Part shown: in pieces, positions 3,514-59,794 of the stretch
Numbering within the stretch: the first letter of the stretch is position 1
Layout: every line of letters begins with the position of its first letter
Assembly: GCA_002401855.1 (NCBI GenBank)
Contig: NVUH01000010.1
Coordinates: forward strand, 19,009-83,008
Direction: 5' to 3'
Origin: Hyphomicrobiales bacterium
GTDB lineage: Bacteria; Pseudomonadota; Alphaproteobacteria; Rhizobiales; OSC116
DNA length: 64,000 nt
Program-made: the position numbers and the translations under genes
Notes under the pieces: model-generated
Seen by the model: only the letters and a program-made list of their open reading frames with translations
Told to the model about the DNA's origin: nothing
Database searches by the model: none

Positions 3514-3958
3514 TAAATGAGACTTCTAGAGAGTTGGCGGAAGTGTTGCTCTGTGTTGGCTGTAAAAAGAAAGTTGACTGGTAATTGAGGCTCTGGAAGT
3601 CTGCATTTTTACGCCCACCTTTCGGTGGGCTAGTGGCCCCTGCGGGCGCTTGCCTCCGCAAGCTTGCTAAGCCACTCAGCCGCTGGTCGGATGAGAATTC
3701 GGCATCCCAATCAACTACATTACGCTTAGTGAGCTTGAGTTTGGCGAAACTCTGCATTTTGGTGCGTCCCGCAGTTTCTGAATTTGTTGCTTGGTGCTAT
3801 ACTGCCTATCGTGGGAAAAGGGTCCGAAGCTTTAGGCTGAGGCAAGCGCGACTGCGCGTCGCCGTTAGGCGTGGCAAGAGAGCGGAGCGAACGCACGCTA
3901 GTGCTACTAGCTCACCGATAGGTGCGCGAAAAAAAGAGAGGCTGCGCCGAACGTAGAG
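3514..3958 (+). repeat. Intergenic mosaic repeat, locus A (one long unit)
   Basis: GC-rich block filling the convergent gapR/mepK-like spacer. It shares modules with 20430-21151 and 40449-40885: a 5' hairpin module, the ~100-nt core, a tail ...cattacgct...cgaaac...ggtgc...ttctgaatt, and gtggcaagagagcggagcgaacgcacgc...gccgaacgta. Confidence 0.85.
3590..3688 (+). repeat. Mosaic repeat core copy A (hairpin cluster)
   Basis: gctctggaagtctgcattttt-acgCCCACCtttcGGTGGGc-tagtgg-cccctgcgggc-GCTTGCctccGCAAGC-ttgctaagccactcagccgctggtc. It differs from 20651-20750 by 5 substitutions and 1 indel. Confidence 0.9.
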
Positions 3959-3960
3959 AT

Positions 3961-20425: not shown

Positions 20426-20650
20426 CTACCTCTCTTTTTTACAACTCTCATACATTTCAGTGAGCGCTACAGCGGCCGTTCGAAGCCGCTGCCGTTTAAC
20501 GCGCGGTCGGCTAGCGCAGTATGCGAAGCGTATGGAGCGCACGCAAGTGTCAACAGAGAGGCTTAAGCCGAACGTATAAATGAAGTACCCGAGTGTTGGC
20601 AGGATGCTTCCCTGTATAGGCTGTTGCAAGACAGTTAGCTGGTTTTTAAT

Positions 20651-20750
20651 GCTCTGGAAGTTTGCATTTTTACGCCCACCTTTCGGTGGGCTAGTGAGCC
20701 CCTGCGGGCGCACGCCTCCGCGTGCTTGCTAAGCCACTCAGCCGCTGGTC
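20651..20750 (+). repeat. Mosaic repeat core copy B1 (hairpin cluster)
   Basis: Same as 3590-3688 except c->t at position 12, one extra a, and GCTTGC..GCAAGC replaced by GCACGC..GCGTGC, so pairing is preserved. Confidence 0.9.
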
Positions 20751-21000
20751 TCGTGCTGGTTCACCACCCAACCTAACCTCATTACGCTGAGTTGGCTCGA
20801 ATGTGTCGAAACTCCGTATTTCGGTGCACCCAACATATTCTGAATTAGCAGTGAGCAGCCCGATCGTGGCAAGAGAGCGGAGCGAACGCACGCAGTGCTA
20901 ACAGAGAGGCGCAGCCGAACGTATAAATGCAGACTTCCAGAGCCTCGGCAGTAGTGCTACCCAGTATAGGCTGTATAAAGACAGTTGGCTGGTTTTTGAT

Positions 21001-21075
21001 GCTCTGGAAGTTTGCATTATGTTTGGCACTGCGTGCGTTCGCTCCGCTATCTAGCTAAGCCACTCAGCCGCTGGT
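21001..21075 (+). repeat. Mosaic repeat core copy B2 (variant lacking the hairpin cluster)
   Basis: gctctggaagtttgcatt, then gcactgcgtgcgttcgctccgct (reverse complement of 20876-20898), then ctagctaagccactcagccgctggt. Confidence 0.85.
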
Positions 21076-21151
21076 GAAACGCAGATTCACCAGCCAACCT
21101 GACCTCATTAAACTGAGGTAGCGAGAGTGTGCCGAAGCTTGGAGCTTCGGT

Positions 21152-21189
21152 GCAAAAATAAAACCCGCAGAGGATGCCTCTGCGGGTTT
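21152..21189 (-). terminator. Rho-independent terminator after the DUF1013 gene (minus strand)
   Basis: 13-bp stem aaacccgcagagg / cctctgcgggttt with a 3-nt loop. On the minus strand it is followed by ttttattttt. Confidence 0.85.
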
Positions 21190-23094: not shown

Positions 23095-23393
23095 AAAGAT
23101 CCAGACAAAAATTAATATATGTAGATTGTAAGTGATTCGTTTGCATTGTTAAATGGCCAGAATGAAACAGATAATTGTAGGTAATTGCTAAGAATTCATA
23201 GCTATTCTTGGCTAAACACTTGAATTTATATTATCCTTTAGTCTAATTTTTAACAAATAAGTGTAATATTAACTAATTTTTAATTGGTATTTATGTATAG
23301 TTAACTTGCGTAATGCAGATATAAACTTCGGTTCATAACTGTTGAATATTTTTTCATTGATATTCTCTTTTACGTCTCCCTATTAAACTTTAC

Positions 23394-23421
23394 GAGCCGT
23401 ATTTTTACGGCTCTTTTTTTT
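23394..23421 (+). terminator. Orphan Rho-independent terminator in a long AT-rich spacer
   Basis: Stem gagccgta / tacggctc with loop tttt, followed by 8 T. There is no plausible ORF upstream on the + strand. Confidence 0.7.
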
Positions 23422-23809
23422 ACAATAAAACAACAAATTTTAATATTTTTTGGCATTATTTTTTTGCTTGTGCAAAAGCTGCGCGCCTTTTTGTAAGAGG
23501 ATCTTAACTTATATTGTTGTTAGGTTTGACTTTTTTTGCTTACGATAGAAGCTATGGTCTTTTTTAAGTTTTCCCACATTTATACAAATGATAAATTTAA
23601 TTAAAATCCATTGCTTTTTCGCAATGATATGCCAATGTTTAGCGAATATGGTGCGCTTGTAAATGAGCAAGGATACGGGGTGAGAGGGGCAGATTTTTAC
23701 GTCTTCAGTTATCAACTGAAACGTTAACCATTTGTTAAGCTTCTTAAAGACTCGCCATAAGCAAAGGTATATATTAACTATACAAGTATTGAGTTAGGGC
23801 GTTATAAAA

Positions 23810-39738: not shown

Positions 39739-40023
39739 ATGGAACTGGATCACACTATTAGGCAAAGCCTGTTAAACTTAGAAAAATCATTTGATGCGCT
39801 GGATAACGCACTGATGAAGCAAGGCAGCGGTGCGACTGGTAATGATGGTATGCGTGATGAGCTGAATATGTTGATTGAAGACAAGAACCAATTGACCGTG
39901 CAATTGGATAAAGCCGAAGCTAAAATAGGGGTGTTTGAAACGGCTAATCTGCAGATAGAAAACCGGGTTGATACGGCGATGCAGCAACTGTCTTCATTGC
40001 TTAGTGAAGATGGTGGTGAGTGA
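39739..40023 (+). CDS. small coiled-coil protein (DUF4164-like), upstream partner of zapA
   Basis: 94 aa, entirely heptad-like. Its stop overlaps the zapA start (gtgaTGa). A conserved position in Alphaproteobacteria, from my recollection. Confidence 0.55.
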   Translation: MELDHTIRQSLLNLEKSFDALDNALMKQGSGATGNDGMRDELNMLIEDKNQLTVQLDKAEAKIGVFETANLQIENRVDTAMQQLSSLLSEDGGE

Positions 40024-40397
40024 TGGCTGAAGTGATTGTGACTGTCAATGGACGGGCTTTTCCTATTTCGTGCAACCCTGGCGAAGAAAATCATATTGCT
40101 GAATTGGCTGAATATTTAGACGTGCGGGTGCGGCAATTTAGAGATACCGGTACGGTGCATGGAGATTCAAAACTATTTTTGTTGGCAGGATTAACTGCGG
40201 CTGATGAATTGTTTGAAGCGGTTGGACGGCTTGAGGCGCTTGAACAAGAAGTGCAGAGTTTGAAACGTTTTTACGATATGAGTAATAGAGAGAAGCTAGC
40301 GGCTGAAGCTAGCATTGTAGAGGTGTTGGATAAAGTGGCTGAGCGGGTGCAGAAGTTGACTGAGCAGGTTGAAGCGGGCATGAGCCGTGATACCTGA
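40020..40397 (+). CDS. zapA: cell division protein ZapA
   Basis: 125 aa. V.VNGR.F.I.C..GEE......A..LD N-terminal domain plus a coiled-coil tail. Confidence 0.8.
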   Translation: MMAEVIVTVNGRAFPISCNPGEENHIAELAEYLDVRVRQFRDTGTVHGDSKLFLLAGLTAADELFEAVGRLEALEQEVQSLKRFYDMSNREKLAAEASIVEVLDKVAERVQKLTEQVEAGMSRDT

Positions 40398-40448
40398 TAC
40401 TGTTTTGAGCGCTGCAGACTAACCGTAAATTCAGCATTTCTATCTAAC

Positions 40449-40885
40449 CCTTTTTTCCACAACTTCCATACATATCAGTGAGCTTAAGCGAACGTATAAA
40501 TGAAGTACCCGAGTGTAGGCAGGAGTGCTAACTTTCTTATGTCTTTACAGCGGAAAATGCTGGTTCATTGGTTGAGATTCCTGCGCAAAGTTTTCAACAT
40601 CATAACTTTTCAGCCATTACTGGGCAGCGTCCTGTCTAAGCTCTGGAAGTCTGCATTTTTACGTTCGCTACGCTCTCTAGTGGGTCCCTGCACCCCGAGG
40701 GCACTTCCTCGCTACGCTCACGGCGCGGGCGCTTGCCTCCGCAAGCTTGCTACGCGCTAACCGCCCGACGGCCGGTCGGCCTTGTCTCAGCCTGTCGGCT
40801 TCGGACGCTTTTACCAAGATAGGCAGCGCTGACTGGATGGCACGTAGTTTGGAAACGAAGAGTATGCAGTGATGCTGAATTTGGT
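40449..40885 (+). repeat. Intergenic mosaic repeat, locus C (divergent unit)
   Basis: Shares cttttttNcacaactNNcatacatNtcagtgagc and gaacgtataaatgaagtacccgagtgtNggcagga with locus B. Carries the core start gctctggaagtctgcattttt at 40640 and the GCTTGCctccGCAAGC hairpin at 40731-40746. Also holds an inverted copy (40781-40826) of the locus A module at 3803-3846. Confidence 0.85.
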
Positions 40886-40924
40886 TGAAAAATAGCTTTC
40901 ATTATCTAGTGTTTTGCCTTACAT

Positions 40925-41080
40925 ATAAATGGCTGCGCGGTTGGTGTGGTGGTATTTCTCCGGGGCCTTACTTTTCTCGAGGGAGCTGACCCTGATTAGA
41001 TCGTGGTCTAGTTTATTTGGCGCCCACCTTACTTTAGGTATCCCGAGATCTTGATCAACTCACGGCCAGCGCGGTACCAT
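40925..41080 (+). ncRNA. ssrS: candidate 6S RNA (boundaries approximate)
   Basis: Position between zapA and the 5-formyl-THF cyclo-ligase gene is the classical ssrS locus in proteobacteria. tggctgcgcggttg (about 40930) can pair with caactcacggcca (about 41060), and ttctccgggg with cccgagat, giving an interrupted long helix. I could not confirm a full 6S fold by eye. Confidence 0.45.
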
Positions 41081-41096
41081 AATATAGAGGGTGTTT

Positions 41097-58537: not shown

Positions 58538-58630
58538 TTAAAAATTCTTGACTTTAGTTTGGCATTCTAATATTTGTGTTGGTGGGACACCTCTCCCCAA
58601 CGAGAGGCACTTTATCTGTGAGGATAACAT

Positions 58631-59794
58631 ATGACTGTTATTATCAAACCGGCTTTGCGTCCGGAAAATACGCATTTTTCTTCTGGTCCATGTTCAAAAC
58701 GGCCTAATTGGTCGCTCGATGCGTTAAAAGACGCTGCCTTAGGCAGGTCTCATCGCTCTAAGCTTGGCAAAGCAAAACTTGCTGATGCGATTGAACTGAC
58801 AAGGGAAGTTCTTCAAATTCCTGCTGATTATAAAATCGGCATTGTACCTGGCTCAGACACTGGCGCGGTTGAGATGGCTCTATGGTCTATGCTCGGTGCG
58901 CGCGGTGTCGATATGCTGGCGTGGGAAAGTTTTGGCGCTGGTTGGGTGACCGATGTGGTCAAACAGCTTAAGCTTGAAAATGTAACCTTGCGCGATGCCG
59001 AATACGGCCAATTGCCTGCGCTTCGCCACGTTAATTTCGACAATGATGTGGTCTTCACATGGAATGGCACGACATCTGGTGTGCGTGTGCCTAATGGCGA
59101 TTGGATTGCGGATGACCGTAAGGGGCTTACGTTTTGTGATGCCACAAGCGCGGTGTTTGCCAATGACTTGCCATGGGATAAATTAGACGTCACTACATTT
59201 AGCTGGCAAAAGGTTTTGGGTTCAGAAGGTGCTCATGGCATGCTGATCCTCAGCCCTCGCGCTGTTGAGCGTCTTGAATCTTATACTCCTGCATGGCCGT
59301 TGCCAAAAATTTTCCGTCTTACTAAGGGTGGTAAATTGATTGATGCCATTTTTACTGGTGCTACAATCAATACACCGTCTATGTTGGCGGTTGAAGATTA
59401 TTTAGATGCGCTCAATTGGGTGAAAGAAATTGGTGGCTTAGACGCGATGATTGATCGGGCTGATCGTAACGCCATTGAGATTGCTGCATGGGTGGCCAAA
59501 GCTGATTGGGTCGATTTTCTACCCGAAAATGCTCACAATCGCTCTAATACATCTATCTGCCTAAAAGTGGTCGATGCTGATATTCTGGCATTGGACGCCA
59601 AAGCCCAAGCAGTATTTGCTAAAAAGATTGTGGCATTGCTTGATGCCGAAGAAGTTGCTTATGACATTGGTTCATATAAAGATGCACCTGCTGGTTTGCG
59701 TATTTGGGCAGGCTCGACCATCGAGACTTCCGATATCATTGCATTAACACCTTGGCTGGATTGGGCGTTTTCCACAGCCAAAGCTGATCTTTAA
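58631..59794 (+). CDS. serC: phosphoserine aminotransferase (long alphaproteobacterial type)
   Basis: 387 aa with [14 protein letters not shown] (PLP-Lys region). Followed by serA. Confidence 0.85.

Follow-up and report, generated by a model that had tools for sequence, protein, structure and literature searches.

The hairpin cluster at positions 3590-3688 of the window, as we call the whole 64,000-nt stretch of Hyphomicrobiales DNA that was analysed, is a module, one among several that can be swapped, of a mosaic DNA repeat that occurs in high copy number in a group of uncultured marine alphaproteobacteria. The repeat is probably a non-coding, intergenic family that is specific to this lineage and resembles REP, BIME and REPIN elements or MITEs, and the cluster would be the head of its units. 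Our observations on this family cover its architecture, copy number and position relative to genes, the absence of a strand rule, the covariation in heads and T3/C-type tails, the mosaicism of the copies and their turnover at orthologous sites. The initial annotation had compared two copies only, A (3590-3688) and B1 (20651-20750), and had counted five substitutions and one 1-nt indel between them, which was confirmed by a global alignment. It is also correct that four of the five substitutions fall into hairpin 3, where GCTTGC/GCAAGC is replaced by GCACGC/GCGTGC (AC in place of TT at 3650-3651, GT in place of AA at 3660-3661) and all six pairs are kept. What does not hold is the reading of this difference as a compensatory change that occurred locally, as the two forms are really widespread versions of hairpin 3 that are common to several genomes.

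The case calls for caution, since a few compensatory changes between two paralogous copies resembled the evidence that is expected of a functional RNA. With 135 copies at hand, the same signal becomes the signature of a mosaic repeat family that swaps paired stems as cassettes. Our analysis adds a well-delimited, hairpin-rich repeat family in an uncultured marine and subseafloor alphaproteobacterial lineage related to OCS116. The build of this family is unusual, as its anchor motif is not a palindrome, its linkers are fixed and it can comprise as many as six independent hairpin modules. Purifying pressure on pairing is clear, and no mobilising enzyme was found in the approximately 0.5 Mb searched.

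Architecture and genomic position of the arrays

Each unit of the repeat consists of a motif of 19-24 nt, which we refer to as M (GCTCTGGAAGTYTGCATTTWTACG) and which is preceded by a short leader, followed by a head made up of two or three exchangeable hairpin cassettes and then by one of several tails. Motif M has four matches in the window, whereas none would be expected by chance. When 18 bases of M were used to scan species-representative genomes, at least dozens of matches were obtained, spread over numerous 8-kb tiles from four related MAGs, namely NORP194, NORP83 (OCS116 cluster), Hyphomicrobiales DT_99 and tPB_Alph1; among the matches listed, those outside the four MAGs are scattered and chance-like. 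A covariance model covering M and the head identified 135 heads in 515 kb, that is, in sequence from the four related MAGs plus the window. The window itself, which is part of a North Pond metagenome scaffold, is alphaproteobacterial to judge from GapR, TrcR, the serC leader and the 6S RNA. By all-against-all blastn, 92 arrays were delimited, three of which are located in the window and make up about 2.4% of it. They contain seven heads according to the covariance model, starting from M at 3590, 3950 (minus strand), 20596 (minus strand), 20651, 20943 (minus strand), 21001 and 40640. The features of the three arrays are as follows.

3514-3953: array A, as delimited by repeat coverage in all-against-all blastn; degenerate inverted M at about 3514-3531, a 58-nt linker and a forward and a reverse unit joined tail to tail; inverted arms at 3520-3531 / 3591-3602; flanked by the convergent genes gapR and an M15-peptidase gene (Pfam)
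3590-3671, plus strand: head of copy A, covariance-model match of 107 bits
3590-3613, plus strand: motif M of copy A, GCTCTGGAAGTCTGCATTTTTACG
3613-3663, plus strand: core of copy A with hairpin 1 (3613-3630), hairpin 2 (3636-3647) and hairpin 3 (3648-3663)
3666-3790, plus strand: T1-type tail of copy A, which includes CCACTCAGCC and the tail hairpin of the initial annotation; conserved in sequence, no supported structure
3806-3959, minus strand: reverse unit of array A, aligned with the T3/C units; its tail is of the T3/C type and its M, at the outer end, is degenerate
3870-3950, minus strand: head of this reverse unit, covariance-model match
20426-21157: array B, beginning at the acs stop codon, with four heads in alternating orientation (20515-20596 minus, 20651-20733 plus, 20865-20943 minus and 21001-21059 plus; covariance model)
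20595-20650: second head-to-head linker of array B
20651-20943, plus strand: copy B1, which is a complete body of 293 bp from M to M'; its inverted ends (20651-20674 / 20920-20943) measure 24 nt and are 92% complementary
20674-20725, plus strand: core of copy B1 with hairpin 1 (20674-20691), hairpin 2 (20698-20709) and hairpin 3 (20710-20725, the ACGC/GCGT version); 110 bits
20944-21000: head-to-head linker between B1 and B2, conserved in sequence and of fixed length
21001-21158, plus strand: copy B2 with M, the common head without hairpins 1 and 3, and a T1 tail that ends in a perfect 9-bp hairpin variant; 22.5 bits
40473-40826: array C, between zapA and the 6S RNA gene
40489-40524: truncated reverse unit of array C with a variant M, followed by a linker of the 127-nt type
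40640-40754, plus strand: forward unit of array C, covariance-model match of 75.7 bits, with M at 40640-40663
40692-40726, plus strand: insertion of 35 nt in copy C that interrupts hairpin 2 (alignments); an insert of the same kind is found at the same site in other units
40731-40746, plus strand: hairpin 3 of copy C, the TTGC/GCAA version, identical to that of A
After 40746 to about 40826, plus strand: tail hairpins 4-6 of copy C

The orientation of M alternates along the arrays, which comprise one to four heads that are joined head to head and tail to tail, and some arrays end in a lone M (for instance L064). Inward-facing pairs of M were found 15 times and enclose 291-394 bp, while outward-facing pairs are 58-59 or 126-127 nt apart in all 14 close cases and are separated by conserved linkers. 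The three hairpins that had been described by the initial annotation are one version of the head only. This version is combined with a T1 tail in A, B1, L002 and L075, and with a T3/C tail in copy C of the window and in L047, L053, L071 and L082; it is replaced by TTGGCACTGCGTGCGTTCGCTCCGCTCTCTAGC in B2 and in most other units with a T1 tail.

With regard to their position, both flanking genes were called for 64 arrays; these genes converge in 34 cases, are in tandem in 28 and diverge in only two. Many arrays are touched or abutted by stop codons, and their neighbours are ordinary housekeeping genes as judged by Pfam. As the arrays are found behind genes, a location in the 3'-UTR is plausible for some copies. 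No rule was found for the orientation of the units with respect to genes: for the unit closest to the upstream gene, there are 40 co-oriented and 61 antisense cases, and the corresponding numbers for tandem-gene contexts are 14 and 20. No promoter-like or terminator-like sites were detected within the arrays. This includes array A, which has no intrinsic terminator in the form of a G+C-rich hairpin with a T-run, and no terminator is present between the acs stop codon and array B either. The only terminator-like site near array B (21161-21189, minus strand) lies outside the repeat and belongs to trcR.

The arrays of the window overlap with mechanical ORFs only, and a coding function was rejected on these grounds and because of the 1-nt indel between A and B1. 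A small ORF across M', the linker and M, which had been seen by eye, was likewise discarded as the linker lengths differ by 1 nt (56/57 and 124/125).

Base pairing and the question of strand

The initial annotation had concluded that selection acts on base pairing rather than on a peptide, and this is borne out at the level of the family: stems co-vary around fixed loops and junctions, the length of indels is not a multiple of three, and the ORFs are mechanical ones. In the heads (n=135), 76.6% of all cells are paired compared to 64.6% in shuffles, in an alignment that was fitted to the covariance model and is hence biased towards structure. Cells with a double change number 224 compared to 66 in shuffles, and neither this value nor the pairing was equalled in any of 500 shuffles. 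In slid controls of the same alignment, only 21-54% of cells are paired, and given these controls we argue that the signal is real despite the model-fitted alignment. The family-level covariation that had been named as a check is strong. A similar picture was obtained for the units with a T3/C-type tail, for which 21 sequences and a hand-drawn structure of five hairpins were used. Here, 89% of cells are paired compared to 78% in shuffles and the covariation score is 0.216 compared to 0.083, a value reached by none of 500 shuffles, while slid controls are 24-47% paired. Four of the five tested helices are 96-100% paired.

The individual hairpins are far less constant than a comparison of two copies would imply. 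Hairpin 1 had been described as invariant, which is true for A and B1, but elsewhere in the family its site is occupied by GCCCGCC, GCGTGCC or GCATGCC, by shorter hairpins (GGC/GCC or GGCC/GGCC), or by none. Overall, 11 distinct fully paired stems were found for hairpin 3 and four distinct 7-bp stems for hairpin 1. Of about 100 heads, only 27 have a fully paired hairpin 3, whose commonest version, GCGTTCGCTCCGCTCTCT, cannot pair; most units lack hairpins 1 and 3. Intermediates with a single mismatch also occur, nine for hairpin 1 and nine for hairpin 3. A scan of metagenomes for the hairpin-3 pattern with free arms returned almost only chance matches, for example in a human-gut gene, together with three contigs of a related family, and is unusable for statistics.

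The two remaining elements of the initial annotation fared less well. The tail variants of A, B1 and B2 can be read in the sequence exactly as they had been given, but a tail hairpin with a conserved stem is not supported, as its pairing in the T1-tail alignment is no better than in shuffled controls. This alignment of 52 copies has a mean column identity of 81% and an RNAalifold energy of -2.6 kcal/mol; the T1 tail shared by A, B1 and B2 shows no covariation and almost no consensus structure, and no proposed helix beats the shuffles. Three further helices, namely GAGTTT/AAACTC, a hairpin in the middle and one that pairs CCACTCAGC with a downstream partner, do not rise above shuffled controls either. 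The helix that had been proposed to enclose the cluster lacks support in the family: CCACTCAGCC is nearly invariant in the 52 tails, and its proposed partner GGCTAGTGG is absent from most such units, as read by eye from the unit listing. Taken together, stem covariation is strong for the head and the T3/C tail and absent for the T1 tail.

It is rather unlikely that the cluster represents a multi-copy family of structured RNAs, that is, 3'-UTR domains or sRNA precursors for which the DNA repeat is only the vehicle, and whose hairpin loops, such as the putative anti-Shine-Dalgarno-like CUCC loop of hairpin 3 or the GGAG and GAAA loops on the complement, might bind proteins, RNases or mRNAs. Such a role would agree with stems that co-vary around conserved loops and junctions, as is seen in functional RNAs, with arrays that directly follow stop codons without an intervening terminator, as is the case for acs, and with the location of array C inside the interval between zapA and the 6S RNA gene. 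Of the structured RNA domain that had been envisaged by the initial annotation, the 3'-UTR location is thus plausible for some copies, whereas a dedicated strand-specific RNA, be it an sRNA precursor or a defined 3'-UTR domain, is not supported. The repeat is dispersed, its units alternate in orientation and are not co-oriented with genes, and the core is optional within them; hairpins 1 and 3 are missing in most units, the T1 tail has no supported structure, and units are replaced or inverted at orthologous loci. A search with 4227 Rfam models gave no match to the arrays, either at the gathering score or at E-values up to 1; the only two matches above the gathering scores are the 6S RNA and the serC leader.

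Wobble pairs, by which the strands might be told apart, account for only about 1% of all cells. For the heads, 18 G:T and 35 A:C combinations were counted on the strand as read (14 and 19 in a separate count), numbers that are dominated by a few shared variants, while in the T1 tails G:T exceeds A:C on this strand. Since there is no wobble excess in the heads and no orientation rule, a strand-specific RNA in the as-read direction is not supported. Folding energies, another of the checks that had been suggested, gave a divided answer: z-scores for A and B1 are -1.0 and -1.9 as read, which is only weakly unusual, and -2.5 and -2.7 on the complement, and those of copies C and B2 are about 0. Single-sequence folding energy alone is thus unpersuasive as evidence for structure. 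If any strand is favoured, there are weak signals for the complement, namely the lower z-scores, the GAAA and GGAG loops, the excess of A:C over G:T and the higher number of antisense units (61 versus 40), all of which rest on few independent events.

Mosaic copies and turnover at orthologous sites

Within a genome, the best identity between copies is 93% and the median is about 78%, and no near-identical copies were found. This indicates that the family is old yet still paired, and that there was no recent burst. The TTGC/GCAA and ACGC/GCGT versions of hairpin 3 both occur in NORP194, NORP83, DT_99 and the window, and also in another type of unit. The presence of both versions in several genomes and unit types shows that we are dealing with a cassette difference in a recombining population and not with local substitutions. 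Other signs of mosaicism are found along the units: A and B1 are 94% identical in their heads and about 67% identical in their tails, a chimeric hairpin 3 is present in L039, and all four combinations of two head markers occur. Orthologous arrays differ in the number of units, in the content of their heads and in orientation, with flanks that are 80-92% identical. At locus A, NORP194 and NORP83 contain extra units, and the NORP194 orthologue of copy A is without hairpins 1 and 3, which are both found in the unit of opposite orientation there. Locus C of NORP194 has its block the other way round.

Pairing is probably kept in this repeat family while stem sequences drift or are swapped, and the conserved loops and junctions probably serve as the shared sequence where recombination or gene conversion shuffles cassettes among copies. 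The difference between A and B1 would then correspond to two old hairpin-3 versions set in a nearly identical head. The constraint probably concerns hairpins that form in either strand when the nucleic acid is single-stranded, which could be DNA in the course of replication or mobilisation, or else RNA from read-through.

The covariation might also arise without any selection on structure, if the arms were made and restored by template switching at quasi-palindromes together with gene conversion, so that the apparent compensatory changes would be single events. We regard a mutational origin of the perfect arms as a serious partial rival, which is nevertheless improbable as a full account of the family. 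Changes indeed come in blocks, as seen for the 2+2 bases of hairpin 3 and for changes in arm length; five T1 tails have CCGCTGATCAGCGG in place of the CCGCTGGTCGGATG found in the others, in which case four coordinated changes lead to a perfect palindrome; wobble intermediates are rare and the copies are clearly mosaic. On the other hand, four of the five T3/C helices are almost fully paired at a median identity of about 78% between copies, the T1 tails, which belong to the same units and have no hairpin potential, show no such correction, and the one-mismatch intermediates of hairpins 1 and 3 do exist. The conservation of the loops, the junctions and M would also be left unexplained.

In the related MAGs examined, the sites orthologous to arrays A and C are also occupied by arrays, and the approximately 10 kb of synteny compared did not contain any array that is present in one genome and absent from another. 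Together with the lack of near-identical copies, this gives no indication of MITE-type movement. No target-site duplications were seen at the 12 M-to-M' bodies examined, which in an old family may have been lost by decay, and inverted symmetry and conservation extend into the flanks outside M. Neither a transposase nor a RAYT gene was found adjoining the arrays or elsewhere in the approximately 0.5 Mb of host genomes searched. Five ORFs located next to or between arrays code for a DUF1203 protein, an AAA_33 kinase-like protein or proteins of no family, and a 552-aa ORF between inward-facing Ms, which we had considered as a transposase, encodes a TPP enzyme. Searches by tblastn with IS200 TnpA and E. 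coli YafM gave no match in the alphaproteobacterial loci, which is a weak negative. The repeat had no match in viral contigs or plasmids.

Comparison with known repeat families

The best fit is a new family that is similar to REP, BIME and REPIN elements or to old MITEs but fails strict membership of each of the named families, because target-site duplications are lacking, M is not palindromic and neither a RAYT gene nor a parent IS element was found in the sequence searched. Similar to the REP and REPIN elements that are mobilised by RAYT transposases in Pseudomonas and Enterobacteria, the repeat is extragenic, high in copy number, old, vertically persistent and clustered, and its M forms inverted doublets at fixed distances (58-59 or 126-127 nt). 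Compensatory changes have been described for REPIN hairpins (PMC3116915), and the repeat keeps its hairpins in the same manner. In contrast to REP sequences, M (GCTCTGGAAGTYTGCATTT) has no internal complementarity and is not a palindrome, as can be read from its sequence. Its units are 150-400 nt long with up to six separate hairpin cassettes, whereas a REPIN is a single hairpin of about 100 nt, and no RAYT gene of the REPIN-RAYT systems was found in the approximately 0.5 Mb searched.

BIMEs of E. coli and RIMEs of Rhizobium are intergenic mosaic elements, and the BIME unit is a palindrome of 35-40 bp. Compared with these from general knowledge, the repeat shares an alternating motif, distinct linkers on the head and the tail side, variable arrays and a location at the 3' ends of genes or operons. 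It has no sequence similarity to them, its motif is a non-palindrome of 19-24 nt followed by variable hairpins, and its linkers are longer (59 or 127 nt).

Bacterial MITEs such as Correia, ERIC, QMITE2 and Chunjie are intergenic, often located in 3' UTRs, and their transcripts are predicted to fold stably (PMC10969869). As with MITEs, the repeat is shorter than 500 bp (291-394 bp from M to M'), non-coding, multicopy and intergenic. It may also share their inverted ends, as B1 carries a 24-nt inverted repeat, although here the inverted symmetry continues past M and some arrays end in a lone M. It differs from MITEs in that no target-site duplications, no near-identical copies and, in the sequence searched, no parent IS were found, and it is G+C-rich (0.5-0.65) and not A+T-rich. 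With Rfam families, the repeat has in common short helices that are supported by covariation and carry conserved loops; it differs from them in that no model matches, both orientations occur, and the helices are optional and vary between copies. Unlike cis-regulatory and sRNA families, it has no fixed orientation to a transcription unit and no promoter or terminator of its own. CIR-like elements with CcrM sites were also considered and rejected, as M is without GANTC when read from its sequence.

In the preferred reading as a REP-like repeat, M would be the recognition site of a protein, and a physiological effect, if there is one, would resemble that of REPs, for instance by protecting 3' ends or by insulating convergent genes from each other. 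BIMEs are bound by IHF, gyrase or Pol I, and positive supercoiling accumulates between convergent genes. One might ask whether the arrays could act primarily as binding platforms for a double-stranded-DNA protein that recognises M, possibly a nucleoid-associated or topology-related one, as has been proposed for BIMEs, with the hairpins being secondary. This would be in line with the conservation of M in sequence rather than as a pair, with position 12 of M, whose C/T state agrees in only three of 11 outward-facing pairs and does not co-vary across linkers, with the fixed head-to-head spacing and with the enrichment of arrays between convergent genes. Such a role seems very doubtful as the main explanation, since the stem covariation in five or more hairpins would be left unexplained and no candidate for the M-recognising protein was identified. 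We consider it just as far-fetched that M and its exchangeable cassettes form the recognition module of an undescribed system, in which either a single-strand-specific mobilisation or recombination enzyme would swap hairpin cassettes among more than 100 sites per genome, or structured RNAs, numbering more than 100 per genome, would jointly serve as a sponge or processing platform, being read either from the complement, whose loops are GAAA and GGAG, or from the strand as read, where CUCC would be an anti-SD loop.

For the preferred reading as a mosaic intergenic repeat, there is also a consequence for annotation: as the arrays cover about 2.4% of the window and touch many stop codons, they can give rise to false ORFs and false RNA-gene calls.

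Internal variation of the repeat units

In addition to the differences between whole units, which open with the conserved non-palindromic motif M followed by a head, which can carry hairpins 1-3, and a tail, individual hairpins were found to be altered. Hairpin 2 is interrupted at CTGC|G by an insert of 34-35 nt (ACCCCRAGGGCACTT...GGCGC) at window positions 40692-40726, and inserts of the same kind are present at this site at the following loci outside the window:

L012, position 443
L017, position 4954, minus strand
L067, positions 49 and 491
L071, position 2808, minus strand

As the units bearing the insert differ in their heads and tails, its appearance is that of either a small insertion nested in the repeat or a duplication of local origin.

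The tails of type T1, the type found in copies A, B1 and B2, also vary. At columns 15-29 of the T1 tail alignment A6, five copies show a perfect palindrome of 14 nt, CCGCTGATCAGCGG, in place of the CCGCTGGTCGGATG of the remaining copies. The palindrome is found at:

L024, position 216
L040, position 3947
L002, position 6669
L009, position 1438
L025, position 6879

The two versions are separated by four coordinated changes, which is suggestive of a templated quasi-palindrome correction giving rise to CCGCTGATCAGCGG.

Hairpin 4 of copy C, the forward unit of array C, is a hybrid of two versions (window 40747-40766): the left arm CGCGC matches the CGCGC/GCGCG version and the right arm GCCCG the CGGGC/GCCCG version, resulting in a C:C mismatch. 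It reflects either an intermediate one step away from full pairing or recombination between the two versions inside the loop.

Surroundings of arrays B and C

A strong intrinsic terminator for trcR, with a 13-bp stem followed by TATTTTTGCA, lies between trcR and array B (window 21161-21189, minus strand). On the opposite side, array B starts at the acs stop codon and no terminator was found between acs and the array. Within window 40020-41081, array C is flanked by zapA and a 6S RNA gene (Rfam match, 54.9 bits). In its orthologue in the related MAG NORP194 (L053, 1720-2350), the block composed of the variant M, the linker, M and the unit has the opposite orientation, although the flanking sequences share 91-92% identity.

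Related sequences and further Rfam matches

A related, yet distinct, repeat is present in other metagenomes, on contigs L086 (764-829), L174 (3618-3683) and L092 (524-615), in which hairpin 3 occurs in perfect 7-bp versions (GCGAGCC-ATCC-GGCTCGC and GCGGCGC-ATCC-GCGCCGC) and which scores 23-31 bits with R1, the covariance model of M and the head. The 18-mer of M also has matches in several actinobacterial MAGs from freshwater (L003, L008, L014, L023, L065), in a conserved region that is probably coding and has no relationship to this family of repeats.

Two overlapping sub-threshold Rfam matches, mmgR/suhB (29.6 bits against a gathering score of 41; E 0.042) and BjrC1505, are located at window 23302-23428 on the plus strand, in the intergenic region that follows 23094, where they may point to a genuine sRNA of alphaproteobacterial type. 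A serC leader (RF00517, 69.3 bits; window 58580-58632, plus strand) is positioned upstream of the ORF at 58631-59794.
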